Source of the DNA: a virus
Taxonomy: Duplodnaviria > Caudoviricetes
Length of the DNA: 37,402 bases
IMG/VR virus record: IMGVR_UViG_3300019872_000009
Location: 1-37,402 of that record
Strand: one strand, 5' to 3'
Below the pieces are notes generated by a model, which did not search any database, was not told the DNA's origin, and worked only from the letters and a program-made list of their open reading frames with translations. This document shows positions 6,893-37,389 of this stretch, in pieces (positions within the stretch are counted from its first letter, which is position 1; every line of letters starts with the position of its first letter). The translations under genes and the position numbers were made by a program.

Positions 6893-6900
6893 ATTGCGTC

Positions 6901-7443
6901 ATGGGTGGTGATACGGTAAGGAAGAGGGGTGTTTGTATTATTTGCGGTATTGATTTCGAATACTATGAGTCAAATCGCGCAACGGGTAAATACTGTTCAT
7001 TAAAATGCGCCCATAAGTCACCGGAAAGGATTGAGAAGATAAGAATAGCAAATACTGGAAAGAAGGCGTCAGAACAAGCGAGGCGGAACATGAGTCTGGC
7101 TCATATTGGTAAAAACATTGGGCCTGAAAGTCATTCATGGAAAGGTGATAATATAAAGTATCAATCACTTCATGCTTGGGTGAGGGCTAATTTCGATAAG
7201 CCAGGTAAGTGTGAAAAATGTGGGACAAAGAAAGGTAAGGCTTACGAGTGGGCAAATAAATCTGGAAAATATAAAAGAAGAAGAAGCGATTGGTTTTGGC
7301 TTTGTAAAAAATGCCATCATAAATATGATGGTGTTGGTGAAAAAGCATCAAAAACATTTTTAGATAGAAAGGATAAGGGGGAGTATGAATTAAGAGCAGG
7401 GGATAGCGGTAGATTAAGGTGGTTTAAAAAGAAAAAGATATGA
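6901..7443 (+). CDS. HNH-type endonuclease with NUMOD3 DNA-binding motif (putative free-standing homing endonuclease)
   Basis: CIICG...KYCSLKC zinc motif, NUMOD3-like KKASEQARRNMSLAHIG, SWKGD..Y..LH.WV and CEKCG...EWAN...LCKKCH. Confidence 0.75.
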   Translation: MGGDTVRKRGVCIICGIDFEYYESNRATGKYCSLKCAHKSPERIEKIRIANTGKKASEQARRNMSLAHIGKNIGPESHSWKGDNIKYQSLHAWVRANFDKPGKCEKCGTKKGKAYEWANKSGKYKRRRSDWFWLCKKCHHKYDGVGEKASKTFLDRKDKGEYELRAGDSGRLRWFKKKKI

Positions 7444-8303
7444 ACGTAGTTTGGTATAATCAGTCTCGCGGGAATTGGGATTCTGGATTGTTGAGGGCAA
7501 TCTTCGATAAACATCCTGATCTTTTCATCCAGCACAACTTTAAAGGATGGGCTCACTTTGATCGGGCCATCGTGATTGTTGTTGGTAAGCCTGAAGTTGC
7601 TCCTTTGCGAGAATGTCTCGACACGTTAAAATCTGGAATAGTAATTCTTACAAGTGATGAGGATGCTTACTTCGATTACAAAGCAGCGATTCCTCCGCAC
7701 TTGGAAATTTGGAGTCAGTACTGGACGCAAGATCGTCCTGAAATAAAGGAGCGGTTGTTAATTGGCCCATCATCAAGATTATTTTATGGTGAAGGTGGCG
7801 TTGAATACAAAAACAACAGCGGCTTCTTGCGGAGAGAGTTTCTTTGGTCGTTCGTGGGCCAAGTGCAAAATCCATCTCGTCAGGAGTGTATAAAAACTCT
7901 CTTAACTCTTGAAGGTGGACTCCTTCAGGTGGTTCAGATGTTTGGTGGCAATGGAGAGAATGGAATGGACTACCAGGCGTATCTCGACATTATGTGTCGT
8001 AGCAAATACGTGATCTGTCCTTCCGGCTCAATGTCGGTCGATTCATTCCGTTTGTATGAAGCGATTGAGTGTGGTGCAATCCCGATCACCGACATGCACT
8101 GCCCAAGAGAGAAAGATGGTTTCAATTGGTGGAGGCAAGTTGTTCCTGACGCAGACATCATGATGGTCAGCTCGTGGAGTGATTTGAATCAGGATTGGTT
8201 TAAGGAACCATTTTACGAAGAGCGACTGAAAAAGAATTCTTGGTGGAATAAATACAAAGAACAACTTGAATCAAAACTAGTCCATGCAGCTTACGAGAAT
8301 TAA
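7440..8303 (+). CDS. Exostosin-like (GT47) glycosyltransferase
   Basis: WSFVG...R, then YLDIMCRSKYVICPSG...SFRLYEAIECGAIPI, the exostosin C-terminal signature. Confidence 0.8.
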   Translation: MNVVWYNQSRGNWDSGLLRAIFDKHPDLFIQHNFKGWAHFDRAIVIVVGKPEVAPLRECLDTLKSGIVILTSDEDAYFDYKAAIPPHLEIWSQYWTQDRPEIKERLLIGPSSRLFYGEGGVEYKNNSGFLRREFLWSFVGQVQNPSRQECIKTLLTLEGGLLQVVQMFGGNGENGMDYQAYLDIMCRSKYVICPSGSMSVDSFRLYEAIECGAIPITDMHCPREKDGFNWWRQVVPDADIMMVSSWSDLNQDWFKEPFYEERLKKNSWWNKYKEQLESKLVHAAYEN

Positions 8304-9027
8304 CGGAAAATACGAACTCTGGCTTCCAGAACATCGCGCAGCTCGTGAGCAGTGGAGCCTCGCCAACGGTGGATGGGAGGTTGGGCGTATTGAAGAGATG
8401 TTAGATGTGTTAAAACCTACTGACATTCTCTTCGATTTGGGGACAGAGGAGGGTGACATCAGCGCATTACTCGTTAAGGAGTCGGGGTGTAAAATTGTGA
8501 TGTTCGAACCAAATGATCGTGTGTGGCCGTGTATAAAAGAAATATGGAAGGCTAATAATTTACCATTGCCGATGGGGCTATATCCGGGATTCTTGGGTAG
8601 TGATGATTTTTTAAATCTCAGTGGGCTTAATCAAAATTGGGATGTGATTGGGTGTAATATGATTCCTGATCATGGGTTCAAGCAGCTTTATGAAAATTAT
8701 CCAGACGTTCCGAGAATTACGCTTGACTCATACTGTGAAAGAACGGGCTGGTATCCCACTGTGATCACGATGGATTGTGAGGGCGCTGAGTTTGAGATTA
8801 TAAGGGGAGCAGAAAAAACTCTTCGTGAGAAAAAACCGATTATCTTTATGTCGGTGCATCCGGTTTTCATGTATGAAAGTTATCGCAACGAAGGTAAGTG
8901 GAGGGAAATGTATGGAGAGCGACAGGATGTTGTCCACATGCTTCGTTTTATTGATGAGTTGGGTTACACCCATCGCTGCATAGAGTACGATTACCATGAA
9001 TTACACATGAGGTTCGATCCAAAATGA
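8284..9027 (+). CDS. FkbM family SAM-dependent methyltransferase
   Basis: LFDLGTEEG motif I, VMFEPN, ITLDSY and ITMDCEGAEFEIIRGAEKTL. Confidence 0.9.
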   Translation: MQLTRINGKYELWLPEHRAAREQWSLANGGWEVGRIEEMLDVLKPTDILFDLGTEEGDISALLVKESGCKIVMFEPNDRVWPCIKEIWKANNLPLPMGLYPGFLGSDDFLNLSGLNQNWDVIGCNMIPDHGFKQLYENYPDVPRITLDSYCERTGWYPTVITMDCEGAEFEIIRGAEKTLREKKPIIFMSVHPVFMYESYRNEGKWREMYGERQDVVHMLRFIDELGYTHRCIEYDYHELHMRFDPK

Positions 9028-9218
9028 AAAAGGCGCTGCTTTACATAATTCCAATTGTAGGGGCTATTTTGCTCACTGATTACATGAATAGGGAATCAGC
9101 TAAAGATGGATATATTCCGAAGTGGTGGGTTATGATTTTATGCTTGCTAGGCACTGGTTATCATATAATGGCCTTGGTTTATCCTTTTGTGCTTGTGATG
9201 TCTTATATGGAAAAATGA
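9024..9218 (+). CDS. Small two-TM membrane protein
   Basis: Two hydrophobic stretches, with ATGA overlaps on both sides. Confidence 0.6.
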   Translation: MKKALLYIIPIVGAILLTDYMNRESAKDGYIPKWWVMILCLLGTGYHIMALVYPFVLVMSYMEK

Positions 9219-9307
9219 TGATTGACCGAATAAAAGATTGGAGGTATTGGGTGCTGCTGTTAATAGTGGGCTCTGTTTTGTTTCTGCTAACGATTCCGTT
9301 TTTATGA
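9215..9307 (+). CDS. 30-aa single-TM peptide (MMIDRIKDWRYWVLLLIVGSVLFLLTIPFL)
   Basis: Fills the gap exactly, with ATGA overlaps at both ends. Confidence 0.5.
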   Translation: MMIDRIKDWRYWVLLLIVGSVLFLLTIPFL

Positions 9308-10044
9308 ATTACACTCCTACTTCCGGAAAGGCTGAGCTTCATGTAACCTACCGCTGCAATCTTCAGTGTGTTAATTGCAATCGCGCATCCATGCTGAGAG
9401 ATGAGCACACACCAGACATGACGCTCGAAGATGTCGCTGAATTCTTTCGTCAAGCTGAAGCGTTAAACTGGAAACCGGACATTCTGTTGATTGGTGGTGA
9501 GCCGACAATGCACCCACAATTTGAGGATATTTTAAGAATGAGTCGTCAGTTTGTTAAAGACGGATTAGTCCAAGTTTGGACAAACGGAAGAGATCGTGAT
9601 CTTGTAGAATACATTCGTGCTGTCTATCACGCATCAGTGCCAGAAGAAACCTTTAAAGCAAAAAGCAGAACAGATTTTCCTTGGGATGATTACTACGTGT
9701 CTCCTGCTGACTACGGGATGGTTCGTGAAAAGTGCTGGCAGCATGGAAGTGGAATTTGCGGAATCTCAGTTGATAGCCAAGGCTACATGCCGTGTGCTGT
9801 AGGTGGAATGTTGGATGGTATGCTGAAGATGGGCCTGCGCACAAAAGTCCTCGCGGATTTATTTGATAATGAAAAGAACGCTGAGATTACAAAGAGAATG
9901 TGTCAGCATTGCGGAGCCTGCCTGAGTCAATTGTTATTAGGCGAGGAGCTGGTGAATTGGAGAAAGTATGTGGAGATGCAACCTAAGAAGTTCGGTGCAA
10001 GGATGTCTCCTAAATGGATGGAAGCGACAATTGGAATGAAATGA
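9304..10044 (+). CDS. Radical SAM protein with Cys-rich SPASM/twitch-like C-terminus
   Basis: Start reassigned to the ATG at 9304. CNLQCVNC (CxxxCxxC), GGEPTMHP, VWTNG, and C-terminal C...ICG...GYMPC...CQHC. Confidence 0.9.
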   Translation: MNYTPTSGKAELHVTYRCNLQCVNCNRASMLRDEHTPDMTLEDVAEFFRQAEALNWKPDILLIGGEPTMHPQFEDILRMSRQFVKDGLVQVWTNGRDRDLVEYIRAVYHASVPEETFKAKSRTDFPWDDYYVSPADYGMVREKCWQHGSGICGISVDSQGYMPCAVGGMLDGMLKMGLRTKVLADLFDNEKNAEITKRMCQHCGACLSQLLLGEELVNWRKYVEMQPKKFGARMSPKWMEATIGMK

Positions 10045-10388
10045 AAATAAGCACACAAGAAGTTGGGTCGTTTTGGGAGTTTGTCTTCCATTGTCCGGGG
10101 TGTGGAAACTCACATGGATTTAAGACTTCATCGTGGCCGATGCCTGAAGGTTTGAATGAGCACATGCAGGGAAGGTTTAGGGGTAATAACTGGACTTGGA
10201 ATGGTGATTTTGAAAAGCCGACAGTAGCTCCATCTCTTAATGTTCAAAGGGAGATTGGGAAAAACGAGAAAGGGGAGCCTTTGTATGAAACGAAATGTCA
10301 CTCATTTGTCGAAGATGGGAATATCAGGTTCCTTGGTGACTGTAAACATGAATTAGTAAATCAAACAATACCACTCGAAGTTTTTTAA
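10041..10388 (+). CDS. DUF6527-like Cys/His-rich protein
   Basis: Start at ATG 10041. FHCPGCG..H, WTWNGD.EKPT..PS and CHSFV.DG.I.FL.DC.H.L motifs. Confidence 0.7.
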   Translation: MKISTQEVGSFWEFVFHCPGCGNSHGFKTSSWPMPEGLNEHMQGRFRGNNWTWNGDFEKPTVAPSLNVQREIGKNEKGEPLYETKCHSFVEDGNIRFLGDCKHELVNQTIPLEVF

Positions 10389-10390
10389 TT

Positions 10391-11143
10391 ATGAAAAGTA
10401 ACCTTACGATTTTAATACCAACATCTCCGATACCTTCACACCCATCAACAGCCATTCTTGATGAGACAATCGCCAACATTCGTCAGTACACCGATGCTGA
10501 AATTATAATAATGTTCGATGGTGTTCATTCATCTCTCGCTCACCGGGCTGAAGATTACAATGAATACAAAGAAGCTGTCCGTAGAAAGAAGCACGAATAC
10601 GGATGGTGCAACATGGCTGAATTTCCTGACCATCAGCACCAGGCGAATATGACTAGGAGAACTTTGGATTTTGTAAAGACTCCGCTGGTTATGTTTTGTG
10701 AGCACGATACAAGTCCTATTGGTGAAATACCTTGGGATGACTTGTGTTTTTTGGTTCAGCATAGTCCGTTAGTTGATTCTCTTAGGTTTAATATTTTCGA
10801 TAGAATTCTTGATGAACATAAACACCTAATGCTGAATGACCCAACTAAGGCTTGGGTGAATTTTGATGACAGGTTGGTATCAGCCGTGACCGTTAGGACA
10901 ATTCAATACTCTCAACGGCCAGCGATTTCAAAAACGGATTGGTATCGTTCGATGCTGGCTAAATATTTTAAGGGTAATCAGAAGGTAATGATTGAGGATG
11001 TTATGCACTCCGTTGTTCAAGAGTCCTACAAGCATAAACGTGAAGATTTTTTTAATATTCATATCTACACACCAGAAGGAAATCAACTCAGGAGCTACCA
11101 CTCAGACGGTCGTGGGGCAGACACTAAAATTATTGACGGATGA
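10391..11143 (+). CDS. Putative GT-A fold glycosyltransferase
   Basis: LTILIPT N-terminal strand, IIIMFDG, VKTPLVMFCEHD (DxD-like) and C-terminal YHSDGR. Confidence 0.7.
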   Translation: MKSNLTILIPTSPIPSHPSTAILDETIANIRQYTDAEIIIMFDGVHSSLAHRAEDYNEYKEAVRRKKHEYGWCNMAEFPDHQHQANMTRRTLDFVKTPLVMFCEHDTSPIGEIPWDDLCFLVQHSPLVDSLRFNIFDRILDEHKHLMLNDPTKAWVNFDDRLVSAVTVRTIQYSQRPAISKTDWYRSMLAKYFKGNQKVMIEDVMHSVVQESYKHKREDFFNIHIYTPEGNQLRSYHSDGRGADTKIIDG

Positions 11144-11436
11144 AAAAGTATGATAAGGTATTAGTTGGTGGTGATCAATGTGGTTACGTCATCAGATCAT
11201 TTAAAGCGTGGGGTAGGTGTTTGGTGAGGCTCCATAATGGAGGGTATAAAATGTATCTTGTTGATAATGTCATGCCTGTTGCTCAATTTATTGAGGGAAC
11301 AGATAGGGTTCTTGATGGATGTGGGTATTCAAATTCCGCGAGGCGATTGGTCGAAATTAGGATTATGGTAAGAGGTTTTATTGCTATGCCTGATGCGTGG
11401 GAACAGCGGGAGGGTAAAATGATATTTAACTTATGA
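11140..11436 (+). CDS. Hypothetical protein
   Basis: 98-aa ORF with ATGA overlaps on both sides. Confidence 0.55.
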   Translation: MKKYDKVLVGGDQCGYVIRSFKAWGRCLVRLHNGGYKMYLVDNVMPVAQFIEGTDRVLDGCGYSNSARRLVEIRIMVRGFIAMPDAWEQREGKMIFNL

Positions 11437-12473
11437 GAATAGGATTAATAGCAAGAGCTGACTCAACTGGTTTGGGTGTTCAGTCAAAAGAATTCTTCGA
11501 TCATGTTCCCAACTGTAAGGCTCTGGTTATTGATTCAAGTCGCCTGCCTGGCGCAATCCCACACGGAATACATTTCTCAGATTACAGTAAGTATCCTAAT
11601 CAGCAGCAACACTCCATGCGCCCCGGACATGGCATGAGGGGTGCTATCCCTTACTCTGTGATAGAGGAGTTCATCAGCGATGTGGATATTGTATTTGCAA
11701 TGGAAACGCCTTATGATTTTAATATTTTTGATTTATGTCAGCAGCGTGGTGTCAAAACCATTCTCCAATACAATTATGAATTTCTTGATTACCCTTCGAC
11801 TCTACCTTACCCTGATTTATTTGCAGCCCCTAGCATGTGGAACTATGATCATGTACCGGGTAATAAGGTATTCTTACCTGTTCCTGTAAACACCGATAAG
11901 TTCAAACCCGGAAAGGAAAAGAATTTTTTCATTCACAACGTTGGCAGGCCAGCGATCCATGACCGTAACGGAACGATGACGGTTTTGAATTCACTCAGGT
12001 TTGTGGAGAATAAAATCACGGTGGCCTTACATAGCCAGCAGCCAATACCGATTCCTGTAGCTCCTCCCGAAAACGTTAATCTGTTGCCTGATTTTGGAAA
12101 CACTCCGAATTACTATGATAACTACTCCGGTGGTGTGTTAATCTTGCCGAGGAAGTATGGTGGTCTGTCATTACCGATGAATGAAGCTCTCGCTGCTGAG
12201 ATGCCGATAATAGCAAGCAACATCTCTCCAAACAATTTATGGCTTCCTAAAGAATGGCTTGTTGACACATTCCATTGCGGGGTTCTCCGAAGTAAAAAGA
12301 CTCTTGATTATTTTGAGTGCTACCACGAACAGTTGGCAGCTAAGATCGATCAGTTCTGCGATCCTGTATTTTACGAGATCGCTGTTGAAAAAGCAAAACA
12401 ATTAAAAGAAACAATATCATGGAAAACTCTTCTCCCGAAGTACATGGAGACATTCGAAAATCTCCTGAAGTAA
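11433..12473 (+). CDS. GT-B glycosyltransferase (GT4-like)
   Basis: MRIGLI...TGLG, PVPVNTDKF and LILPRKYGGLSLPMNEALAAEMPIIASN, with terminal SWK. Confidence 0.85.
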   Translation: MRIGLIARADSTGLGVQSKEFFDHVPNCKALVIDSSRLPGAIPHGIHFSDYSKYPNQQQHSMRPGHGMRGAIPYSVIEEFISDVDIVFAMETPYDFNIFDLCQQRGVKTILQYNYEFLDYPSTLPYPDLFAAPSMWNYDHVPGNKVFLPVPVNTDKFKPGKEKNFFIHNVGRPAIHDRNGTMTVLNSLRFVENKITVALHSQQPIPIPVAPPENVNLLPDFGNTPNYYDNYSGGVLILPRKYGGLSLPMNEALAAEMPIIASNISPNNLWLPKEWLVDTFHCGVLRSKKTLDYFECYHEQLAAKIDQFCDPVFYEIAVEKAKQLKETISWKTLLPKYMETFENLLK

Positions 12474-13228
12474 AACTTGCTGCGATTTACAACGTGTGGG
12501 ACGGGGTTGAGCTGCTAGTTGGCTCAATGAGGTCTGTAAAAGACAATGTTGATTTATTCATCATTGTTTATCAGGATGTTTCAAACTTCGGTGAGCAATT
12601 CAATCCAATGGCGAACCTTCCGTTGGAGCAGATGGACGAAGAGTTTAAAATAATCTGGATCAAGTACGAACCTGCCATGATGGGAATGCTTGATGAAAAG
12701 CAAAAAAGAAATTTTGGAATCAACGCTGCAAGAGAACATGGATGCACGTACTTCATTGCAATGGACTGTGATGAGTATTATCTGGCTGGCGATTTTGAAA
12801 GAGGAAAGAAGTTATTTTTAGAATCAGGTTGCGAGGGGTCTGTTGTTACTCTTTACAGTTACTTTGGTGAGGCTACGCTTCGCCAGGAAAACAGGGATAG
12901 TTACTACGTGCCATTTATTCACAAGCTGGATGCGCACACGGTTACTGGCGCTCCGGTGTATCCGTATTATGTTGATCCTACACGTAAAATAAACTGTGCT
13001 TCAGTTAAGCTGTTACCTATAGATATGCACCATTACACATGGGTTCGGAAGGACATCGAGCTGAAGGCCCGTAACTCATCAGCAAAACGAAACATCGAAA
13101 GAGCGGGGCTTTTAAAGGACTACTACACCGCAAAAGAGGGTGCTGTTGTGAATGGAGGCAATCGGTTAATAAAAGTTCCTGACTACTTTGGAATTACCGA
13201 AATGATTGATACATTCGAGTCCGTTTAA
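12419..13228 (+). CDS. GT-A glycosyltransferase (Glyco_tranf_2_4-like); start uncertain
   Basis: KLAAIYNVWDG.ELL..S, EKQKRNFG, YFIAMDCDEYY (DxD) and MHHYTWVR. Confidence 0.75.
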   Translation: MENSSPEVHGDIRKSPEVKLAAIYNVWDGVELLVGSMRSVKDNVDLFIIVYQDVSNFGEQFNPMANLPLEQMDEEFKIIWIKYEPAMMGMLDEKQKRNFGINAAREHGCTYFIAMDCDEYYLAGDFERGKKLFLESGCEGSVVTLYSYFGEATLRQENRDSYYVPFIHKLDAHTVTGAPVYPYYVDPTRKINCASVKLLPIDMHHYTWVRKDIELKARNSSAKRNIERAGLLKDYYTAKEGAVVNGGNRLIKVPDYFGITEMIDTFESV

Positions 13229-13300: not shown

Positions 13301-13591
13301 ATGAAACGCCAATATTTATTCTCTATCGGATTGATCGTAGCGATTTTTGCGATGGCTATCGTTCCTGAAGAAACGATGGGTAAAGAACTGAATGTTAAGG
13401 CGGCTTACTCTGTCGTTGTTGATAATAACGTGCAGGCTGTTACTTTGGATGAGGGCGCTCTTGTAGCGTTTCCATCGTTCGATTACATTATGGAAATTTC
13501 CGGGGAGGAAGTTCCTGAGTGGTCAGACACTCTTGTGATCGGTGATGAAGTCCGGGTAGTGGTTAGAGTTTATAGGCCACCGAAAGAATAA
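13301..13591 (+). CDS. Stand-alone exported or membrane-anchored hypothetical protein
   Basis: N-terminal MKRQYLFSIGLIVAIFAMA signal/TM segment, with terminators on both sides. Confidence 0.65.
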   Translation: MKRQYLFSIGLIVAIFAMAIVPEETMGKELNVKAAYSVVVDNNVQAVTLDEGALVAFPSFDYIMEISGEEVPEWSDTLVIGDEVRVVVRVYRPPKE

Positions 13592-16279: not shown

Positions 16280-18226
16280 ATGCCAGCAACTTTCACCATA
16301 CCAAGTGCATTCACGGCCATTGACAAGTTCTCTGGCCCTATTTCACGTATGGGTAATGCTGTGAATAGTTTTGCTTTCAAGTCTGAAGCTGCGCTCAGTC
16401 GCGTTGACCGGGCCTTCAGGACGCTCATGACCCCAATGACTGCCTTCCGGCAGATGTTAAATTCAATCGGGCTATATGTTGGTATATATGTTTTCATCAG
16501 GGCCATTCGTGGTGCTCTTGATGTGATGATGGATTTTGAGCAGGCTCAGATAAACATATCCGCAGTAACAGGAAAGTCAATCTCGCAGAACCAAGCACTC
16601 GCAGATCAGGCCAGAGAGCTTGCTGTTCGCTATGGAGAGGCCGCTACAAAAGTTTCTGAGCTTCAGTACGAGTTAATCAAGATGGGATTTGCCAACAAGG
16701 GCATTAAGCCTGTTCTTGAAATGACCCCATCAATTGTTATTGGGGCCAGAGCGTTAGGAGCTGATCCTTCAGAGCTGGCGAAAATGTTGGGAGCTGACTT
16801 AACCGCATTTAATATACCGACATCTCAAGCGAACAATGTGATCGATATGTACGCGAAGATTGCGGACTTATCTGCATTGGATTTCTCTTCAATACAAACT
16901 ATGCTTGCTAACTCAAGAGCGGCATGGGCTCAAACAGGAAGGCCTCTAGAAGAGCTTCTCGTGTTAATGGCTGTGTTGCGTAATGCTCAGTTGCACGTTG
17001 CTACTTCCGGTACTGGTATTAAAAACATGACTATCGACAACGCTGTTGCGAATAAGGATTTGAATGAGCAGTTGATGAAGGTTATTGGCAGCGAGAATAA
17101 AATTCAGAAAGCGTACAAGATGTACGGCAGAAGAACTTTCCAATCCGTTCTTCCGTTAGCTGAAGCTCTTGAGTCTGGAAATATTAAAGGTTTGCAAGAT
17201 CAACTTGCTGCTGGTTCGGCTGGATATGCGCAAAGGTTAGCTGAAACGAAATTACAATCAACAAAGGGTCACTTATCTTTATTGAAGGCTGCGTATGAAG
17301 AATTAATTTTAACTATCGATGATGGTAATGGTGGGCCGTTATCAACTGCAATAAAAAGATATTCGCAGATTATCTCTGCAATGTTGTTATTGACCTCAGG
17401 ATCAGACGCAGCGAACGGGAAGTTGAAAACAATGGACTCTTCTATTGTTGAAATTGCGAAGTCTGCGTTGACATGGCTGAAGGTTATTGGAAATTTGATC
17501 AAGCTGTTAATTGCTTTCAGGTTGTTGCTGATCGCTAGTCGAATCGCGTTGTTCTTATACAATGTTCAGTTGGGTATCTCGACTGCCTTCTTAATAGGAA
17601 ACGTCATGGCATTGCGTGGCAATGTAGTGGCTTTGGCTGCGTATAGAATTGCGGCTATGGCTGCGACCGCACAACAGTGGATATTCAACGCAGCAATGGC
17701 AGCTAATCCAATCGGGCTGATAATAATCGGGATCGCTGCAATGGTTGGCCTTGTCTACACTTTAGCGAAGCATTGGGAATCATGGGGCGCTGCTGTGTCT
17801 TTAGCTTTTGGCCCTCTCGGTTTACTATTGAATCATGTGATGTCTTTCTTTAATAAGTGGGAAGGAATTAAGAAGTCGTTTAAGGATGGTAGTTTCTTAG
17901 AGGGCATTAAGTCGATTGGACTCGCGCTGTACGATGCTATACTGTATCCAATGATGCAGTTGCTTGAGATAATCGGTAGGGTAACTGGATTCGATTGGGC
18001 AACGAACGCAGCCGCAAGACTTCAGGCTCATCGTGAGAATATGGGCATTGAGAAACTCGACATGGCGGGAGAGAGATCGGTGAGTGAGAAAAACACTACA
18101 ACTAAAAACAATGTGAGGGTTGACATCAACGCTCCGCTTGGATATAATGTATTTGGCTCTGATCCTAACGTGAATATAAAACCAGTGTTGTCATCAACTC
18201 ATGGATGGCATGCTCCAATGCAGTAG
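16280..18226 (+). CDS. Tail tape measure protein
   Basis: FTAIDKFSGP N-terminus, DFEQA...ISAV core, AQQWIFNAAMAANPIGLII motif and Ala-rich helical composition. Confidence 0.92.
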   Translation: MPATFTIPSAFTAIDKFSGPISRMGNAVNSFAFKSEAALSRVDRAFRTLMTPMTAFRQMLNSIGLYVGIYVFIRAIRGALDVMMDFEQAQINISAVTGKSISQNQALADQARELAVRYGEAATKVSELQYELIKMGFANKGIKPVLEMTPSIVIGARALGADPSELAKMLGADLTAFNIPTSQANNVIDMYAKIADLSALDFSSIQTMLANSRAAWAQTGRPLEELLVLMAVLRNAQLHVATSGTGIKNMTIDNAVANKDLNEQLMKVIGSENKIQKAYKMYGRRTFQSVLPLAEALESGNIKGLQDQLAAGSAGYAQRLAETKLQSTKGHLSLLKAAYEELILTIDDGNGGPLSTAIKRYSQIISAMLLLTSGSDAANGKLKTMDSSIVEIAKSALTWLKVIGNLIKLLIAFRLLLIASRIALFLYNVQLGISTAFLIGNVMALRGNVVALAAYRIAAMAATAQQWIFNAAMAANPIGLIIIGIAAMVGLVYTLAKHWESWGAAVSLAFGPLGLLLNHVMSFFNKWEGIKKSFKDGSFLEGIKSIGLALYDAILYPMMQLLEIIGRVTGFDWATNAAARLQAHRENMGIEKLDMAGERSVSEKNTTTKNNVRVDINAPLGYNVFGSDPNVNIKPVLSSTHGWHAPMQ

Positions 18227-18230
18227 AAGT

Positions 18231-18746
18231 ATGGATTTAGAATTAGTAGAAACATTGAATGGTGGTGACTTGGTTAAGAACGCCAAGGACTTGAAGGTAA
18301 TCTACGGATTTGAAGCTATGCCATACATGGCTATGTTCGGTGGTAACACTGAGGAGTCTACACCGACAATCAGGCTGGCAAACAGGCAGTATAATGACTT
18401 TTGGGCAAATGATCTTCTATGGCCCAAGAGTCCATCGCTGCAAATTAATTCTGAGACTGAGCGTGTAATGAGCAGTGTCCCATTAACCAGCTTCGGTAGG
18501 CTGCAAATAGAGCAGGCTATCAAAAAAGACCTGAACTTCTTCAGGGACGTTGCTGAAATTAAGGTGGCTGTAACGGTTCTTAGTGATGACAGAATCGCAA
18601 TAGGTATTAAATTAATTCAGCAGGTTTTCGTGTATATTTGGGATGCAACCAATAAGGAGTTAACCGATGCTGAATTTATAGTAACAACGACAGGAACAGT
18701 AAGAGTTAAAATATTCGACTATACCTTCGACTTCACTTTTGAGTAA
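18231..18746 (+). CDS. Baseplate protein (Mu gp46-like)
   Basis: Start reassigned to the ATG at 18231. GGDL, MAMFGG, FWAN and IEQAIKKDL segments, directly before baseplate J. Confidence 0.65.
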   Translation: MDLELVETLNGGDLVKNAKDLKVIYGFEAMPYMAMFGGNTEESTPTIRLANRQYNDFWANDLLWPKSPSLQINSETERVMSSVPLTSFGRLQIEQAIKKDLNFFRDVAEIKVAVTVLSDDRIAIGIKLIQQVFVYIWDATNKELTDAEFIVTTTGTVRVKIFDYTFDFTFE

Positions 18747-20634: not shown

Positions 20635-21459
20635 ATGCGTAAATTAGAAGATCAAGTCAATGTAGTTGCCCCTGGTGGTGATTACCCTTATGGCCGCATT
20701 CGTGACGATGACGGTTCTAGTAATGGTACTCCTTTGAACGAGGCTGTTCATGGCGATTATCATCAGTTTTTCGCAAGGCTGTTTGCTCAATCTGGAATCT
20801 CTGCAAACGATTTGCCGGAGAATTCAGCTAACGGATTCCAGTACTTTGAAGCGTTGCTTAAAGTAATTTCATTAAGAGCAGGAAGGTATTCATCTGCTTC
20901 TGATGTTGGCGCTTCTGTCAGTACAAATTTTAATGACTACAGTGCTGCTGGAGTTTTTGAGTGTGGAACCACATTCACCAATAAGCCTGCTGGTCTTACG
21001 ATTGGGCAGTTAACGGTATTTGGAACCGGGGCTGATGTGACACAGAGGGTTGTCGATTTGAATTATGGTGCTGAGTGGCACAGGTTCTATACTGGCTCTT
21101 GGAGTGCTTGGGCTCTGACTAGATATGCAGAAAGAAAGATTGATCTTGGTGATTGGGATATGGATACAACAAACTCGCTCATCGTTGATCTTGGCGCTCT
21201 TGGTTTGGATGTCACTAATATTATTGATATACGTGCCATTGTAAGGGCTGATGATGACGCTTTCGTTCCTCTTGCTTTATACCATGCCCCATTCGGAACG
21301 GATGCTGGATTGACATTGTGGATGTCATCGATTTTTGGTGTGGCCCCTGCCTGTTCTGTTTCTGTTGTTAGATTGGCAGGTAGTGGTTTTGATGGAACTG
21401 ATTTTGATGATACTGGTTTTAATCGTGGTTGGGTAATCGTTAAGTACATCCCGCAATAA
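20635..21459 (+). CDS. Short tail fibre / baseplate-attached fibre
   Basis: Follows the gp48-like gene. N-terminal GTPLN..V anchor and knob-like FNDY...G.....N.P...G.L.V...VTQR...W.R....WSAW segment. Confidence 0.7.
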   Translation: MRKLEDQVNVVAPGGDYPYGRIRDDDGSSNGTPLNEAVHGDYHQFFARLFAQSGISANDLPENSANGFQYFEALLKVISLRAGRYSSASDVGASVSTNFNDYSAAGVFECGTTFTNKPAGLTIGQLTVFGTGADVTQRVVDLNYGAEWHRFYTGSWSAWALTRYAERKIDLGDWDMDTTNSLIVDLGALGLDVTNIIDIRAIVRADDDAFVPLALYHAPFGTDAGLTLWMSSIFGVAPACSVSVVRLAGSGFDGTDFDDTGFNRGWVIVKYIPQ

Positions 21460-30958: not shown

Positions 30959-31345
30959 ATGAGTTTACTGGAAAGAGCCAAGGCTGACATCGAGAGGATC
31001 ACATCGAACCTGAATGAGTTTGCCAGGGCCGCTGTATTTTACGCACCAACAGGGGAAACGGCTTCAGTAAATATCCTTCACACCAAGCATCATTTAGGTG
31101 TGGATGCTGAGTTGCAGAAGTGGGTTAATACGAAGAATGCGCACATCTCAGTTGCGGAGAAATTTTTGATTGACGCTGGATACCCGGTAAGAAACAGCGG
31201 TGGAGATGTGAGTTTGTTGAGACATAAGGTCAAGGTAGCTGACTCAACTGGAACGGAAGTTACTTATATGATTGACCGGTGGTTCCCAAATGAGACGATA
31301 GGTCTTATCACTTGCATTCTTGGAACTTATGAACCAGCACCGTAA
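30959..31345 (+). CDS. Head-tail adaptor / head closure protein (gpFII-like)
   Basis: Position after the capsid genes, 128 aa, beta-rich C-terminus. Confidence 0.55.
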   Translation: MSLLERAKADIERITSNLNEFARAAVFYAPTGETASVNILHTKHHLGVDAELQKWVNTKNAHISVAEKFLIDAGYPVRNSGGDVSLLRHKVKVADSTGTEVTYMIDRWFPNETIGLITCILGTYEPAP

Positions 31346-31947
31346 TGGCAGAGATACCCCTCATACCGCAGCAGGTTTTTGAAGCGATCCACAATCGAAT
31401 TGGTGAGATATTGACTGAGGAGTTAGAGAAGCAGTCGATACTAGCGAGTGATCCAACGTTGATTTTCCCAGTATTCAAGGAGCGGGACATTCCATTTAAT
31501 GACAGTGAGCTTCCTGCCATGAATGTAATGTTTGATGAGTCTGAGTACGACATGCAGACGCAAGTGCAGCACACGGGGGATTATCAGTATGTAATTGAAC
31601 TTGCTGCAAATGGCAAGAGCAACGATGAGAAGTTTGGTGATACACTTACGATGAACCAAGTGCAAAGGGTATTGGGGATTTGTCGGGAGATTATAATGAA
31701 TCCTAAATTCACAACACTTGGTTTTCCAAAGCCGTTGATTGAAAATCGTAAGGTTATTGGAATGAGGTTTGGAAAGCCTGTGCGTCAGGATTCGTCACAT
31801 ACGATACTTGGTAGAATGATGATTCGTGTCAAGGCGGTGGAGTCAGCGCAATTAAACACGGCTCATTTAATTCAAGGAATTGACACTACGGTTTTCCTGT
31901 ACGAAACGGAGAATGGATACCAGTGGAAGTCTTATTTTATGCAATAA
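31345..31947 (+). CDS. Tail terminator / neck protein (gpU-like)
   Basis: VFKER..P....ELPAMNV motif and gene position. Confidence 0.6.
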   Translation: MAEIPLIPQQVFEAIHNRIGEILTEELEKQSILASDPTLIFPVFKERDIPFNDSELPAMNVMFDESEYDMQTQVQHTGDYQYVIELAANGKSNDEKFGDTLTMNQVQRVLGICREIIMNPKFTTLGFPKPLIENRKVIGMRFGKPVRQDSSHTILGRMMIRVKAVESAQLNTAHLIQGIDTTVFLYETENGYQWKSYFMQ

Positions 31948-31996: not shown

Positions 31997-32431
31997 ATGT
32001 TGAATCTCATGATTAGCATACTTGGTTGGTTCCTTTGGAATTGGGCTGAGTTCAGTATCGTAAAACAAGAAGGTGATGGTGGTGAATACACTGAGCGGAT
32101 ACTAAGGGTTCTTAGCGAGACACCGAATCTTACTATAGAGCAAAAAAGCTTCCTTACTATAGGGATCAAGGGTGTGCTGAGAAGTCCAATAAACCTCAGG
32201 GCATACGTGAGGACTCATTGGGAAACTTGGGTTGGATCGGTTGCTTGTATAGCGTTGTTACTTTGGGTTGGGTATCGCCAGGTGAGCCTCGATCCATTCG
32301 AGGCTGTGGTGGGAACGAAACTTAGTTGGAGTGATCTTTATTTACTTGGCTCAGGATTCGCTTGGGATGCTATCATCTTTGCTTTTAAAAAAGGCAGGAA
32401 TTTTTTCAAGAAAAAAGAACAGGAACTTTAA
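31997..32431 (+). CDS. Membrane protein, holin candidate
   Basis: About three hydrophobic segments and a basic C-terminal tail (KKGRNFFKKK). Confidence 0.45.
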   Translation: MLNLMISILGWFLWNWAEFSIVKQEGDGGEYTERILRVLSETPNLTIEQKSFLTIGIKGVLRSPINLRAYVRTHWETWVGSVACIALLLWVGYRQVSLDPFEAVVGTKLSWSDLYLLGSGFAWDAIIFAFKKGRNFFKKKEQEL

Positions 32432-32433: not shown

Positions 32434-32769
32434 ATGTCATCTAAAACAGACGCGGAGCTAACAGCCGCAGCAGATGTAATCGCTGCTGAAACAGCAGCCG
32501 GGGCAAACACTCGTGGAAGAGTGGCTGGTCTTTTAAAGGATATAATTGACTCGAAACCAAACAATCCTGTACGTGGGAACTACGATGCCTCTACAAATCT
32601 TTTCCCGGAGATTGGCGGCACTGGTGGCAGCGGTGTTGTTCTGAGGGGCAACCAGTTTCCGGTCACGGTTGGTGGAACCTTGAATGGTGAACATGTACCA
32701 GCCGGGAGTATTTTATTTGCGCTTGATGATCAGCCAGATCAGGATGCTTTGAAATGGAGAGTGATTTAG
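32434..32769 (+). CDS. Small fibre-associated structural protein
   Basis: ETAAGANTRGRV N-terminus and RGNYDASTN.P...G...VTVGG...W domain resembling phage fibre N-terminal modules. No signal peptide. Confidence 0.5.
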   Translation: MSSKTDAELTAAADVIAAETAAGANTRGRVAGLLKDIIDSKPNNPVRGNYDASTNLFPEIGGTGGSGVVLRGNQFPVTVGGTLNGEHVPAGSILFALDDQPDQDALKWRVI

Positions 32770-32780: not shown

Positions 32781-35492
32781 ATGAAAAAAATAATCATTTT
32801 AATCCTAACACTATCCAGCCTAACGGCATTCGGTCAAAGCGAGGCTCTTAATGATTTAGTGAGGCTTAATCCTCCATCGAGTGCTAAGACTGCGAATGCC
32901 TTGGATGCTTCTGCGTCATACGGAACTTCTGGAACAAACACTTACGCTATTTCTCCGGCCCTTGGTCAATACGCTGGCGGGTTGACGTACGCCTCTGGTG
33001 ATATGTTCACGATCACAATCGGTATTGCAAACTCATCTTCAACTGTAAGTTTAAATGTTGATGCTGAAGGTGCTGTTGCACTTAAAAACAATGATGGAAC
33101 TGATCCTGAAATTGGAAGCCTTTGTGCGGGATGTACTTTCAAATTCAGACACAACGCTACGAATTTTAGGATGGTTGGTTCTTCCGGTGGAGGCATTGAT
33201 GGTCATATAATTGAAAACTCAGGTACACCACTAACACAAAGAGCAAATCTTAATTTCACCAGTGGATTAACAGCAAATGATAACTCTCCTAATACGGATG
33301 CTTCAGTTGATTTAACTTATGGTTTTAATTGGTCAGGAACTCATACATTCTCCCAAAAACTTATAACGTTAAATAAAGGAGGGGCCGCTGCGAGTGGAAA
33401 TGGAGTTGGCTTTGAGATTGAGGAAAATGGTGGTATTACTGGATATTTTAAAACAAATTCCGCCAGAACAGGATTTGAATTTCGTTCACCGGCATCCATT
33501 AATGGGTCTTCTGCTGGAACTCTTATATTTCCCGATGATAATAATAATAACGCCTATACATTTATAGGCTCAAGTTCGGAAGTCTTAACTACTAATTCAT
33601 CTCACTCAGGGGGGATAGGTGGTATTAAAACATTCACGACTCAAACGCTACGAGTATTCAATCCCGCATTAACTTTTAGTTACAGGTTTGTTTCCTCTGC
33701 TATCGTTGCTAATAGAAATATGACAATTCCGCTTTTAACTGGGAATGATATTTTTGTTTTTCAGGACTTTAGCCAAACACTTGCTAATAAGGCAATCAGT
33801 GGGGCAAACAATACAATAACAAACGTATCCCTAACAACAGGTGTAACAGGAATTTTACCTGTTGCAAACGGAGGTACTAACTTCTCATCTTATACAATAG
33901 GAGATTTAATTCAAGCTAGTGCTTCCGGTGTTCTCTCTAAATTGAATTCTGTAGCTACAGGGAATGTATTAATTACCGGTGGCGTAGCAACAGTATCTTC
34001 TTGGGGCAAGGTAACATCCTCACATATTGACGCAACCGTTCAAACATCCGGATTGTCGTGGCTATTGACTGGAACATCAACACTGACCGGGGCGGTTACA
34101 ATCGCTCATGGTGGAAATAATGTTAGCTTTTCGGGAACAGGTAAGGTTACGTTTTCACCAACGAATGGAGGTGGTTCTATTGCTGGGTTTAATCCAGGAT
34201 CAGTTACTAATAATCCAGCCACACTTGCTAATGGTGATTTGTTTTATAGAACAGTGGATCACAACCTTGTCACTTATAAAAATAGCTCAGTTCAGGCAAT
34301 CGTAACAACGCCCTCCGCTACAACTGGTCGTGTACTATATTGGGGTAATGGTGCGGAGGCCGGGGCGGTTGATAACGGTAGTTTTGCTTTCACTACTACA
34401 GGCGGTCTTGCTTTAACACCAGCGACCACTATACAAATCAGTTTTTTTCGCTTCAACGAAACATCTACACTGTTAAATCATGCCATAGGAACAGATGGTC
34501 TTATAGATGTTCTTTCAACTGGGGCCAATTCAACCGCATCAAAAATAGTCATTGGTGTTAGTTCAATCGTGCAAAAAACTGGCACGACCAATATAAATAT
34601 TGGAAATTATAGTGAAGCCACAGGAGCATCTACTGATAACATTGCATATCTAGGAGTTGGTAAGATACAGACAAAGGGGTCTACAACCACAGCAACTTAT
34701 AGTATAGCACTATCCAAGTGGCCGGAAAATACAACACAGTCAATTGCTTTAGTTGGGAATAATTTATTTATAGATGGTTCCGGTAATATTCTAAGGGAGA
34801 ATACGTCTGTCAGTAGAGGGCAAGCATGGGTTTATTATACTGGTTACTCAGGAGTTACCGGAAATGCTTTGGGTTATTCAACCTTTAATACAGGCTCGTC
34901 AACCCTTACGCACCCAAAAACAATATTTCAAACCGGGGATACTCAACTTATTGCAGGCGGGCGATTTGGATGGGTAACATCAACAACCGATTCAAGGGGA
35001 TCAATAGCCTCTAACATTGGTCATTCATCTGGAAGTATTTTGGTTACTCCAACAGCGGGGATATTACTTGCAAGGTCAGGAACAATTACTGCGTCCACTT
35101 TGGTTGATATTCGTGGGGCTGGAACAACATCATCAACTATAAATACAAGATGGGCTAATAGCAGCAATGGGGTGTTGGCAAACATAACTGATGACGGTAA
35201 TTGGTTATTTAATGGAAAGCATGTATTTGATGTAACCATTACAACTCCCGGAACAACTGGAAATCAAACAATAAATAAACCCGGTGGTACGGTTAATATT
35301 GCCGCAGCCGGCACTACGGTGACGGTCACGAATAGTTTTTGCACAACATCTAGTAACGTGACTGCAATTATAAGAACAAATGATGGTACGGCATTTATAA
35401 AAAACGTGGTACCCGGTGCAGGCTCTTTCGTAATTAATCTTGGTGCGGCAGCCACAGCAGAGATTGCTATATTTTGGAAAGTAGAAAATTAA
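32781..35492 (+). CDS. Long Gly/Ser/Thr-rich fibre-like protein with Sec signal peptide
   Basis: Start at ATG 32781, MKKIIILILTLSSLTAFG|Q. Fibre-type motifs QTLANKAI, GILPVANGGT and YTIGDLI.A...LSKL. Confidence 0.75.
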   Translation: MKKIIILILTLSSLTAFGQSEALNDLVRLNPPSSAKTANALDASASYGTSGTNTYAISPALGQYAGGLTYASGDMFTITIGIANSSSTVSLNVDAEGAVALKNNDGTDPEIGSLCAGCTFKFRHNATNFRMVGSSGGGIDGHIIENSGTPLTQRANLNFTSGLTANDNSPNTDASVDLTYGFNWSGTHTFSQKLITLNKGGAAASGNGVGFEIEENGGITGYFKTNSARTGFEFRSPASINGSSAGTLIFPDDNNNNAYTFIGSSSEVLTTNSSHSGGIGGIKTFTTQTLRVFNPALTFSYRFVSSAIVANRNMTIPLLTGNDIFVFQDFSQTLANKAISGANNTITNVSLTTGVTGILPVANGGTNFSSYTIGDLIQASASGVLSKLNSVATGNVLITGGVATVSSWGKVTSSHIDATVQTSGLSWLLTGTSTLTGAVTIAHGGNNVSFSGTGKVTFSPTNGGGSIAGFNPGSVTNNPATLANGDLFYRTVDHNLVTYKNSSVQAIVTTPSATTGRVLYWGNGAEAGAVDNGSFAFTTTGGLALTPATTIQISFFRFNETSTLLNHAIGTDGLIDVLSTGANSTASKIVIGVSSIVQKTGTTNINIGNYSEATGASTDNIAYLGVGKIQTKGSTTTATYSIALSKWPENTTQSIALVGNNLFIDGSGNILRENTSVSRGQAWVYYTGYSGVTGNALGYSTFNTGSSTLTHPKTIFQTGDTQLIAGGRFGWVTSTTDSRGSIASNIGHSSGSILVTPTAGILLARSGTITASTLVDIRGAGTTSSTINTRWANSSNGVLANITDDGNWLFNGKHVFDVTITTPGTTGNQTINKPGGTVNIAAAGTTVTVTNSFCTTSSNVTAIIRTNDGTAFIKNVVPGAGSFVINLGAAATAEIAIFWKVEN

Positions 35493-35497
35493 AAGAT

Positions 35498-36334
35498 ATG
35501 AAACTTACACTGACGTTTTTTTTATCAATAATTCTCTCATTATGCAACGGGCAAGATTCGATTGTCTTTAATCTTGGGGGGTCATTTGTTACTATCTATA
35601 AGGATGGGCACTCAAAAAGAATACCATCACTAGGGAGTAATACGAATGGAAAATACCTAACCAATAATGGGACTTCTTTTCAATGGCAGACAATAGCAGG
35701 AGGAGGGGATATGTTAAAGACAGATAATCTTTCAGGACTATCTAATTACACTACGGCACGATCCAATTTAGGGTTGATAATCGGCACAAACGTCCTTGCT
35801 CCAAATGGTAGCGCATCAAGTTTAACATCATTTCCAACTTTGAATCAGAATACAACTGGTAGTGCAGCTATTCTTACAACGCCAAGGAATATTAATGGGG
35901 TTGCTTTTGATGGGAGTGCTAATATAACGGCTTATACATTTTCTGTTAATGTTCAAGCCCTGACAAGTTCTCCGGCAGATGGAGCTACAATTTTTATAGG
36001 CCAGCTACCAAAAGCACCTGTAACTACTTCAGGTCAAGGCGGTAAGATATTTGTACGCCAATCTTGCACAATAAGGATAGCAGAAATTTATACTTATTCA
36101 GGAACATCAGGAACTAATGAGGCATGGGTGTTTTCAATCCGTAAAAACAACACCACTGATACCCAAATAGCATCGGTTTCACTTGCAACGAATGAAAGAA
36201 TATTTTCAAATACAGGACTTAGTATAAGTATGAGTGCTGGTGATTATTTCGAAGTAAAGGCAGTAAACCCCACATGGGGTACAAACCCATTAACAACTAT
36301 TATTGGGGGATATGTAATGATCTCAATACCTTAA
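35498..36334 (+). CDS. Fibre-like protein with Sec signal peptide
   Basis: Start at ATG 35498, MKLTLTFFLSIILSLCNG|Q. Fibre repeats NLSGL....ARSNLGL and LTTPRNINGVAFDGSANIT. Confidence 0.75.
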   Translation: MKLTLTFFLSIILSLCNGQDSIVFNLGGSFVTIYKDGHSKRIPSLGSNTNGKYLTNNGTSFQWQTIAGGGDMLKTDNLSGLSNYTTARSNLGLIIGTNVLAPNGSASSLTSFPTLNQNTTGSAAILTTPRNINGVAFDGSANITAYTFSVNVQALTSSPADGATIFIGQLPKAPVTTSGQGGKIFVRQSCTIRIAEIYTYSGTSGTNEAWVFSIRKNNTTDTQIASVSLATNERIFSNTGLSISMSAGDYFEVKAVNPTWGTNPLTTIIGGYVMISIP

Positions 36335-36350
36335 ACTTTAAACTTAAAAA

Positions 36351-36668
36351 ATGAAAAATTTAATTACCGCACTATTCATCCTATCGTCAACAGTTGTCTT
36401 TGCTCAGGCTAATTCCAAGGCTGACACTATTGTAATCAAACTGACTCCGTTCCAACTGACTCAGATTGAATCAATTGATTTAAAGAAAAAAGAAATATCT
36501 GATGCTCTTGAAAAACAGAAGAAAGAATTGTTTGCTCAGTTGGACGAGAAAGCTAACTTGATCATTCTGATGGTACTCGATAATAATAAGATCATTCAAT
36601 CTGACGTTGAGTCATTACAATTTAAAAAGGATTCATTTTTTATAACTAAAAAGAAAAAACAACCATGA
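36351..36668 (+). CDS. Exported coiled-coil protein
   Basis: MKNLITALFILSSTVVFA|Q signal peptide and central heptad-rich helix. Confidence 0.7.
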   Translation: MKNLITALFILSSTVVFAQANSKADTIVIKLTPFQLTQIESIDLKKKEISDALEKQKKELFAQLDEKANLIILMVLDNNKIIQSDVESLQFKKDSFFITKKKKQP

Positions 36669-37108
36669 AAACAATCAAAAAATTTTTAATCGTTTCCCTA
36701 TTCCTATGTGCAATCTCGTCATACGGCCAGCGGGTTTTAACCCCTGATGAACGTCAATCGCTAATAGGTAGCAGTTTGTTCATTCAGAAATGCGAAATGT
36801 CCGCCCGTGACTATGCTTCATTTTGGTCTGTTAATGATGGAAGTGCAGCTAACACAGAAGCGTTGAAAATCAAATGGGCAAAAGACAGACAGCTTTCTGT
36901 AGATATATTATTGAAGGATGTATCAGATGGACGTATTTCTATACGATTTATAAATCTAGCTAAAGGTAAGCAGTTTAATATTGGGCCAGCCCCTCAACCT
37001 GTAGAGGTATTAATTGCTGCTTGGGTTACTGAAAATTCCTTTGATGAATTTGTCGGAGGGTATTTTACATTGCTGGGGGATAATATTAATATGTCCATCG
37101 GGAATTAG
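36665..37108 (+). CDS. Exported hypothetical protein
   Basis: MKTIKKFLIVSLFLCAISSYG|Q signal peptide, ATGA overlap with the upstream gene. Confidence 0.7.
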   Translation: MKTIKKFLIVSLFLCAISSYGQRVLTPDERQSLIGSSLFIQKCEMSARDYASFWSVNDGSAANTEALKIKWAKDRQLSVDILLKDVSDGRISIRFINLAKGKQFNIGPAPQPVEVLIAAWVTENSFDEFVGGYFTLLGDNINMSIGN

Positions 37109-37143: not shown

Positions 37144-37389
37144 ATGAGCAGCGAAAAACGAGCACAAATTAATGATTATTTAAAGTGGTTCTTTTGGGCC
37201 TCTATCTCAGTAAGCTCTTTCCTGTTGTCAAGTGCGTACAATAGGGTTGAGTCGCGGTTTGATGAGACGGATAAGAAAATTGAAATGCAGATGGATAAGG
37301 CTGAACGTAAGATTGATAAAACCTACGAGAAAGTTCAGGCTATCGAGTCGCGCATGATTCGTGTTGAATATGAACTGAAGTTGAAATAA
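37144..37389 (+). CDS. Single-TM plus coiled-coil protein, possible holin or lysis-cassette protein
   Basis: One hydrophobic segment followed by a charged coiled coil, an architecture common at the start of phage lysis modules. Confidence 0.45.
   Translation: MSSEKRAQINDYLKWFFWASISVSSFLLSSAYNRVESRFDETDKKIEMQMDKAERKIDKTYEKVQAIESRMIRVEYELKLK

Follow-up and report, generated by a model that had tools for sequence, protein, structure and literature searches.

Probable periplasmic folding and lysis-time docking of accessory fibres in a myophage likely of Bacteroidota

Two accessory fibres encoded by a tailed phage, presumably of Bacteroidota, probably fold in the host periplasm and dock on phage particles at lysis. 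We base this reading on a viral stretch of 37,402 nucleotides (the window), in which four consecutive late genes encode two fibres and two small partner proteins with a Sec/SPI-type leader that ends before Gln (4 of the 49 window ORFs and no others, by a home-made rule). The leaders are of the Bacteroidota type, and comparative sequence evidence makes Sec export of the four proteins to the periplasm likely; their attachment to finished particles probably waits until the host cell bursts. To our knowledge tailed-phage particles are assumed to be completed in the cytoplasm, and we know of no tailed-phage build route that uses exported, late-docking fibres.

Results

Four consecutive late genes carry predicted leaders

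The rule asks for a basic n-region followed by an uncharged h-region, with small residues at positions -3 and -1 and Gln at +1. All four proteins have the small residues and the Gln of this rule-based Q-rule signature, which upholds the layout of n-region, h-region, small residue and Gln first proposed for them, and the coordinates and residues of the four N-termini were verified (Table 1). On shuffled N-termini of the four proteins the rule fires in 0.35-0.8% of shuffles, and among 772 context ORFs taken from other viral loci it selected three. A looser class accepting any +1 residue is unreliable, 30 of its 32 calls in the 772 context ORFs falling on one Ala-rich N-terminus. Two of the ORFs open at upstream in-frame codons (32754 and 35474), but the downstream Met given in the original prediction is preferred because homologues of both start there. 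No lipobox Cys is present in the four leaders and no transmembrane stretch was found in the four mature parts (best 19-residue hydropathy 0.8-1.5). The proteins also had no NCBIfam or Pfam match to a C-terminal sorting domain of T9SS cargo, a comparison that a divergent signal could escape. An assembly artefact or frameshift splitting the upstream adaptor from the first fibre was ruled out: the leader sits between them, and homologues start at the leader.

Table 1 Features of the window discussed in the text
Feature	Position	Strand	Remarks
FDYTFDFTFE C-terminal peptide of baseplate wedge protein (18201-18746)	18714..18743	+	putative docking site for anchor
Leaderless fibre-type gene	20635..21459	+	baseplate block, after gp48-like wedge; by position probably an ordinary cytoplasmic fibre
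Head closure gene and next gene	30959..31947	+	directly upstream of cassette; next gene a putative tail terminator by position
144-aa hydrophobic protein	31997..32431	+	putatively holin-like, by position
Leaderless adaptor candidate, 111 aa	32434..32769	+	carries the N-terminal anchor module at residues 3-45 (32440-32568)
903-aa fibre-like protein	32781..35492	+	residues 1-18 a predicted SPI leader; +1 residue Gln
Predicted signal peptide 1	32781..32834	+	from leader rule and homologues
278-aa short fibre	35498..36334	+	leader 1-18; D-S-I motif at residues 20-22
105-aa small partner	36351..36668	+	leader 1-18; D-T-I motif at 25-27
147-aa predicted helical partner	36665..37108	+	leader 1-21
81-aa protein, hydrophobic N-terminal stretch	37144..37389	+	likely start of lysis block, judging from relatives

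Genome context

The phage is a phiSM/FCL-2-like myophage, presumably of Bacteroidota. Its nearest cultured relatives by capsid protein infect Cellulophaga and Flavobacterium. The cassette belongs to the late gene block, where neck genes precede it and lysis genes follow, and the window ends 13 bases after the 81-aa gene. Among loci found through the capsid protein alone, all that reach past the terminator-like gene (6/6 distinct loci) have a leader+Gln ORF there, and loci found through the anchor module described below add two more. Of 73 upstream ORFs none has such a leader. Across loci, fibres and their partner genes agree in whether they carry a leader, which speaks for real export.

The two fibres

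The 903-aa protein is a mosaic of modules common to leaderless phage fibres and matches annotated phage fibres in tblastn searches. The fibre motifs originally reported were all recovered, GILPVANGGT in the 903-aa protein and ARSNLGL and PRNINGVAFDGSANIT in the 278-aa protein. The latter has PHROG tail-fibre matches and a predicted C-terminal jelly-roll tip domain that also occurs in leaderless phage fibres; the tip model is a confident beta-sandwich, with Foldseek matches that include C1q, CBM6 and the CBD of the A-1(L) short fibre, at low whole-model TM. Two marks of a phage fibre, fibre-homologous modules and a C-terminal fibre-type tip fold, were found. Conservation of the signal, a check proposed with the original prediction, came out in its favour: in all six homologues that share the N-terminal domain of the 903-aa protein (6/6) the leader is diverged yet present and Gln19 is invariant. 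A PDB sequence search with the 903-aa protein gave no match, an IMG/VR search with its N-terminal alignment confirmed no locus, and a profile comparison of its mature N-terminus with the anchor module, using 3 rows, was not significant (E 0.2-0.35). Some homologues resemble secreted proteins of unknown context. The baseplate block contains a leaderless fibre-type gene of its own, which makes the cassette fibres accessory.

The small partner proteins

The chaperone or partner role first suggested for the two small proteins is putative and comes from gene neighbourhood. As with chaperones, a small gene directly follows a fibre gene in the cassette. Leader-bearing genes resembling the 105-aa partner come after fibres in three loci (L009, L100 and L111), and the 147-aa family follows fibre-like genes with the leader present or absent. 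Ten of 12 homologues of the 147-aa protein have a leader, and the other two begin where the mature protein would. In this family's loci L109-L114, presence or absence of the leader agrees with the neighbouring genes where these are visible. In the comparison with known chaperones neither small protein had a family match, searches of the ESM Atlas with both gave nothing above 0.77, and the low-confidence fold predicted for the 147-aa protein (pLDDT 58) had generic helical matches only (best Z 5.5).

An anchor module and a co-occurring peptide

Loci with a 44-residue N-terminal anchor module tend also to encode a neck or baseplate protein bearing an FDxTFDxTF peptide, and this holds also for modules behind a leader. 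In the window the module is found in the 111-aa adaptor candidate, which matches phrog_38537, a tail fibre N-terminus. When loci were collected by the peptide only, 59 of the 79 larger than 2 kb carried an anchor ORF, spanning 11 of 12 carrier families, and 20 had no anchor within 6 kb. The controls, reversed ORFs, shuffled ORFs and 18 peptide-free loci, gave no matches. Anchor positions were counted in the best 150 of 585 matches: in 65 there is no leader and the module begins no later than residue 6, in 85 it begins at residue 15 or beyond, and none falls between. Among these 85, 81 were called leader+Gln, and their module begins 0-3 residues past +1. Leader-type anchors adjoin peptide-bearing neck genes in four loci (L006, L009, L099 and L100); a fifth, L008, has a leader-type anchor but no peptide within the 8 kb covered. 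The docking route of the four exported window proteins is a guess, because none of them has a significant anchor match. The anchor alignment had no match among PDB sequences, and a complex predicted from three anchors and three wedge C-termini scored 0.01, which speaks neither for nor against binding. We estimate that about 1200 IMG/VR stretches contain the strict peptide pattern.

Glycosylation motifs track the leader state

The O-glycosylation motif was defined as D-S/T-A/I/L/V/M/T in an exported protein. In the best 150 of 585 anchor matches, the region behind the anchor holds 35 motifs against 252 expected in the 85 leader-type proteins and 72 against 74 in the 65 leaderless ones, and 51 of 71 long leader-type proteins have no motif versus 3 of 16 leaderless; these counts are not independent, since a single clade holds 35 of 51 leader-type tip domains. 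A reduction is also seen for D-S/T ahead of other residues (171 versus 300 expected) and for the motif in leaderless homologues of the 903-aa protein (209 versus 359). Homologues of the 278-aa protein are enriched in the motif at the mature N-terminus (38/43 versus 19/69). In the window, the 278-aa and 105-aa proteins have one motif each, and the 147-aa protein and the mature part of the 903-aa protein have none. The 278-aa and 105-aa proteins thus carry the motif of Bacteroidota O-glycosylation, glycosylation itself being predicted. Leader-bearing fibres appear to have largely lost this periplasmic motif, which supports real export.

Leader+Gln proteins of cultured phages

GenBank annotation notes on three Cellulophaga phages provide the MS/MS evidence: eight leader+Gln proteins (phiSM gp08, phi10:1 gp091-094 and phi18:3 gp085-087) are labelled 'structural protein, MS/MS'. 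The displayed text of these notes makes no remark on leaders. The leader+Gln pectate lyases phiSM gp09 and phi10:1 gp095 have no MS/MS note, so the particle records do not cover all exported cassette proteins. As in the window, the three phages have runs of leader+Gln genes preceded by a leaderless gene of 110-120 aa and followed by membrane or lysis genes, and phiSM shares the core architecture of the window phage (capsid 32% identical). They differ in lacking the anchor module and in having mature proteins unrelated in sequence; by BLAST the eight MS/MS proteins showed no relation to the mature window proteins. No leader+Gln structural gene was seen in phi18:1 (20 ORFs), phi40:1 (24 ORFs) or FCL-2 (13 ORFs, by eye), so the trait is patchy.

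Discussion

Together, the MS/MS-annotated leader+Gln proteins and the co-occurrence of anchor and peptide point to the virion. The original prediction had left two fates open after export; comparative evidence favours export, and joining virions at lysis is favoured over display on the host.

In Bacteroidota, the Gln laid bare by SPI cleavage is cyclised on the periplasmic side (PMC5837995), and proteins outside the cytoplasm receive O-glycans at D-S/T-hydrophobic motifs (PMC12871550). In the route we propose, Sec would export the two fibres and two partners, with the leader cleaved before Gln. The fibres would trimerise in the periplasm, perhaps aided by the two small proteins, while the 278-aa and 105-aa proteins would be glycosylated at the one motif that each has near its N-terminus and the long shaft would avoid glycans. 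With no further sorting signal the proteins would remain periplasmic until lysis mixes the compartments and lets them dock on finished particles. The weakest steps concern the dock: in the window phage the leaderless adaptor might bind the wedge peptide in the cytoplasm and offer a socket to an exported fibre, and in relatives the anchor on the exported fibre itself might bind the neck peptide. The full two-compartment scheme, with fibres folded, pyroglutamylated and selectively glycosylated in the periplasm and then latching after lysis onto an FDxTFDxTF peptide that Bacteroidota phages would shift freely among neck, baseplate and other virion proteins, is tentative, and somewhat against the odds.

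Alternatively, the exported proteins could work unattached once the cell has lysed, serving as soluble adhesins, as decoys or as helpers that bind and cut matrix for the progeny, and never become a fixed part of the particle. The pectate lyases without an MS/MS note fit this, as do the separate leaderless baseplate fibre gene and the lack of a recognised anchor in the exported window proteins, and a published free-virion sample that lists phi18:1 gp52 also contained non-structural proteins (PMC13288928 Table 3). We nevertheless consider it unlikely, given the structural note on eight leader+Gln proteins from three genera and the leader-type anchors beside peptide-bearing neck genes, which free proteins would not need.

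Quite improbable is a host-conversion cassette, made in infected or lysogenic cells to supply envelope or surface adhesins or superinfection blockers. For P. gingivalis phages, Matrishin et al. proposed that five Q-rule genes modify the membrane (PMC10367356), and the secreted-like homologues noted above would suit it. Display on the host finds no support in the window, where the four proteins have no lipobox, membrane segment or NCBIfam sorting-domain match, genes of the late block are spaced by -4 to 49 bases and no promoter signal above chance precedes the cassette; the anchor was found at one genome locus, and in 1 of 401 sampled Bacteroidota genomes.

Least probable of all, the leaders might be uncleaved membrane anchors or leftovers of shuffling with host secreted proteins, the fibres assembling in the cytoplasm as usual: cleavage is predicted from sequence and the same modules function without leaders in other phages, but Gln after a small residue is invariant while the leader diverges, the module boundary falls at +1, motif skews track leader state and all four genes carry leaders at once.

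If periplasmic folding and docking at lysis are right, export would open the host's periplasmic glycosylation and N-terminal protection to the fibres and would separate sticky adhesins from assembly intermediates. Were the two-compartment route true, particles would complete their maturation outside the cell, and co-infecting phages could even exchange fibres. The anchor and peptide, if they bind, would form a brief, transferable docking code, and many genes left unannotated in Bacteroidota phages of gut and freshwater would be explained by it. The idea can be tested in the three cultured Cellulophaga phages whose records already call such proteins structural.

Our literature search, mostly at listing level and outside subscription papers, found no description of Sec-exported tailed-phage fibres or of the FDxTFDxTF peptide. 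Virion proteins with cleavable Sec leaders exist in filamentous phages, whose coat proteins pIII and pVIII are membrane-anchored and added on extrusion of a non-lytic ssDNA phage, whereas the window proteins are predicted to be soluble and belong to a tailed dsDNA phage. Porphyromonas gingivalis phages have five genes, their function unknown, with SPI leaders before Gln, like the cassette; they were read as envelope modifiers, and in the available part of that report no link to fibres or virions is drawn (PMC10367356). The long tail fibres of T4 are built apart with the chaperones gp57A and gp38 (PMC3004832), and the A-1(L) neck fibre gp82-gp81-gp80 is hooked on late via an N-terminal domain (PMC10966104); both resemble our proposal in their separate assembly, and the accessible parts of these two accounts describe no export step. 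Two queries did not find the anchor in cultured phages, and a copy in Cellulophaga phage phi18:1 was recognised by translation and HMM. There the fibre gp52 opens with the anchor module (E 7e-9) and gp51 ends in the peptide, like the window pair; gp52 differs from the leader-type anchored fibres in having no leader.

Leader peptides before glutamine

The original prediction held that four consecutive fibre-region genes carry Sec signal peptides cleaved before Gln, as in the Q-rule (PMC5837995, accessible part), and all four leaders were found at these genes. Leaders followed by Gln at +1 (leader-Gln) were called with a home-made sequence rule, not SignalP; it selected 4 of the 49 window ORFs, exactly the four predicted, against a background of 0.35-0.8% in shuffled N-termini and 3 of 772 context ORFs of other loci. 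A capsid-protein search gave 11 loci, six of them usable because four stop too early and one is a duplicate, and all six have at least one leader-Gln ORF 3' of the terminator-like gene. Two further loci do likewise, although their selection by anchor alignment makes them a biased addition, and none of the 73 ORFs upstream in these eight loci was called.

The proteins and their homologues

The 903-aa and 278-aa proteins are mosaics of modules that also occur in leaderless phage fibres. AlphaFold2 confidently modelled a C-terminal beta-sandwich in the mature 278-aa protein, for which Foldseek returned C1q domains, CBM6, spore ExsF, the A-1(L) short-fibre binding domain and numerous viral fibre or collagen proteins, all at low whole-model TM. 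Family and fold searches with the 105-aa and 147-aa proteins gave no match.

Among the best 119 of the 463 homologues of the 903-aa protein, all six with its N-terminal domain have a diverged leader and an invariant Gln19; 100 match internal modules only and all of these are without a leader. For the 278-aa protein, the best 119 of 615 homologues comprised 43 leader-Gln, 7 uncertain and 69 uncalled sequences, three of the last being leader-like by eye. Five proteins with fibre modules (P0070, P0072, P0075, P0119 and P0123) have longer leaders of another style, with Gln after them, and possibly come from phages of another host group. In the 147-aa family (n=12) ten members have a leader and two start at the mature end, and in six loci (L109-L114) the leader state is that of the visible neighbours: leaderless 3' of leaderless 803-aa and 1128-aa genes (L109, L114), leaderless 5' of leaderless small genes (L112, L113) and leader-bearing among leader-bearing genes (L110, L111). 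This match fits a partner that would go with its client to the same compartment.

Coordinates of features in the window and in two compared viral loci
Locus	Position	Feature	Observation
Window	2683-3123	146-aa ORF	GGNFL/GGDF pentapeptide-like repeats
Window	3275-3787	Leader of lipoprotein type, starting at an internal Met	HELGH metallopeptidase-like motif after the leader (by eye)
Window	3787-13228	Glycosyltransferase cluster	Between terminase and sheath; at least five glycosyltransferase-like genes, FkbM methyltransferase, radical SAM gene
Window	13301-13591	96-aa gene, possible leader	Directly 5' of sheath gene; L100 and L103 have small genes like it (by eye)
Window	18714-18743	FDxTFDxTF peptide	C-terminus of baseplate wedge protein
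Window	20635-21459	Leaderless fibre-type gene	In baseplate block
Window	32434-32769 (+)	111-aa adaptor candidate	Leaderless; anchor module
Window	32781-35492 (+)	903-aa protein	
Window	35498-36334 (+)	278-aa protein	
Window	36351-36668 (+)	105-aa protein	
Window	36665-37108 (+)	147-aa protein	
L001	4289-5271	Variant pair: terminator-like gene ending in DFNRDFNNDY, and next gene	Next gene leaderless, 111 aa, with another N-terminal module; possibly a second docking code
L099	7029-9743	Terminator-like gene with a fused 700-residue extension	Immediately 5' of leader-type anchor fibre

An anchor module and its putative docking peptide

The N-terminal part of the window 111-aa product is a 44-residue module, the anchor. 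Among the best 150 of 585 matches it stands at the extreme N-terminus in 65 and directly after a leader in 85, a ratio that reflects a query of four leader types and one leaderless sequence and is not a population figure. Fibre gp52 of the cultured Cellulophaga phage phi18:1 starts with it and is listed, in the accessible part of PMC13288928, among the proteins of free-virion samples that also contained non-structural proteins.

In anchor-bearing loci a virion-type protein has a peptide resembling FDxTFDxTF; this protein is the wedge (window, L016), the head-tail joining protein (phi18:1), the terminator-like protein (L006, L009) or head closure, there in a loop (L099, L100). In one ORF set, mostly from a single freshwater lineage, the peptide terminates the gene 5' of the anchor ORF in 79/79 cases. 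The reverse test started from 120 loci picked by the peptide alone, of which 119 were analysed; 59 of the 79 longer than 2 kb contained an anchor ORF, covering 11 of 12 carrier families, and no anchor match came from reversed ORFs, shuffled ORFs or 18 loci lacking the peptide. Across L117-L235 at least 12 carrier families, unrelated to one another, end in this peptide; the largest is a 350-360-aa protein present in many contigs, where the anchor gene follows some 4 kb downstream.

From this co-occurrence we infer that the anchor may bind the peptide. In loci where a predicted exported fibre bears the anchor and the cytoplasmic neck the peptide, an encounter at lysis is the simplest reading. 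We consider it reasonably probable that the fibres mature in the periplasm and attach to particles at lysis. In the window the anchor was found on the leaderless 111-aa gene and in none of the four putatively exported proteins, so an adaptor step between the two has to be assumed.

Virion evidence and genome setting

GenBank records of cultured Cellulophaga phages annotate eight leader-Gln proteins as structural by MS/MS (phiSM gp08, phi10:1 gp091-094, phi18:3 gp085-087), which are analogues of the window's four, not homologues. Each run is preceded by a leaderless 110-120-aa gene, comparable to the window 111-aa gene and annotated structural in phiSM and phi10:1. Two leader-Gln pectate lyases in such records are without the MS/MS structural mark. 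That the proteins of the cassette act free after release by lysis seems to us rather unlikely.

Host conversion by the cassette is improbable in our estimate. The window, a whole contig of 37,402 bases, carries the late genes of a phage with a contractile tail (terminase, glycosyltransferase and methyltransferase cluster, sheath, tube, tape measure, baseplate, portal, protease, decoration, capsid and head closure), whose capsid protein has its nearest cultured relatives, at 31-32% identity, in Cellulophaga phiSM-like and Flavobacterium FCL-2-like phages. The four genes follow the neck genes with intergenic spacing of -4 to 49 bases and no promoter signal exceeding chance; in relatives, lysis-type genes lie 3' of the corresponding block (by eye). 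Because the baseplate block already has a leaderless fibre-type gene, the four would be additional fibres. The glycosyltransferase cluster could modify the virion or the surface glycans of the host. The longest contig in both the 278-aa and the 147-aa protein cluster has 53,599 bases, which means that this genome, or a near-identical one, also exists in a longer version.

O-glycosylation motifs

The Bacteroidota O-glycosylation motif D-S/T-A/I/L/V/M/T is modified solely in non-cytoplasmic proteins (PMC12871550, accessible part). Leader-type 278-aa homologues have 64 copies of it within their first 60 mature residues, where 12 are expected and permuted control motifs are at expectation, and it lies near the mature N-terminus in 38/43 leader-type versus 19/69 other homologues. 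Behind the anchor of long fibres it is purged from the 85 leader-type proteins (35 observed, 252 expected) and stands at 72 against 74 in the 65 leaderless ones, although D-S/T followed by other residues is likewise depleted (171 versus 300 expected). One conserved tip position keeps the motif in 49/66 leaderless versus 7/51 leader-type proteins, 35 of these 51 forming a single clade in a quick tree. Depletion is milder in leaderless 903-aa homologues (209 versus 359), and the window 903-aa fibre lacks the motif where 3.3 copies are expected, a result that is weak on its own. That the leaders are non-functional or uncleaved is, in our view, very improbable.

Comparison with known systems

Phage Q-rule genes have been published with function unknown (PMC10367356), and PMC3338817 and PMC5723332 add nothing on fibres, each in its accessible part; in the open-access literature we found no description of exported tailed-phage fibres or of the FDxTFDxTF peptide. 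Late docking of exported fibres, as proposed here, would resemble T4 and A-1(L), where separately built fibres attach late (PMC3004832 and PMC10966104, accessible parts). Late attachment is thus already known; docking of exported fibres, if confirmed, would be a new assembly route.
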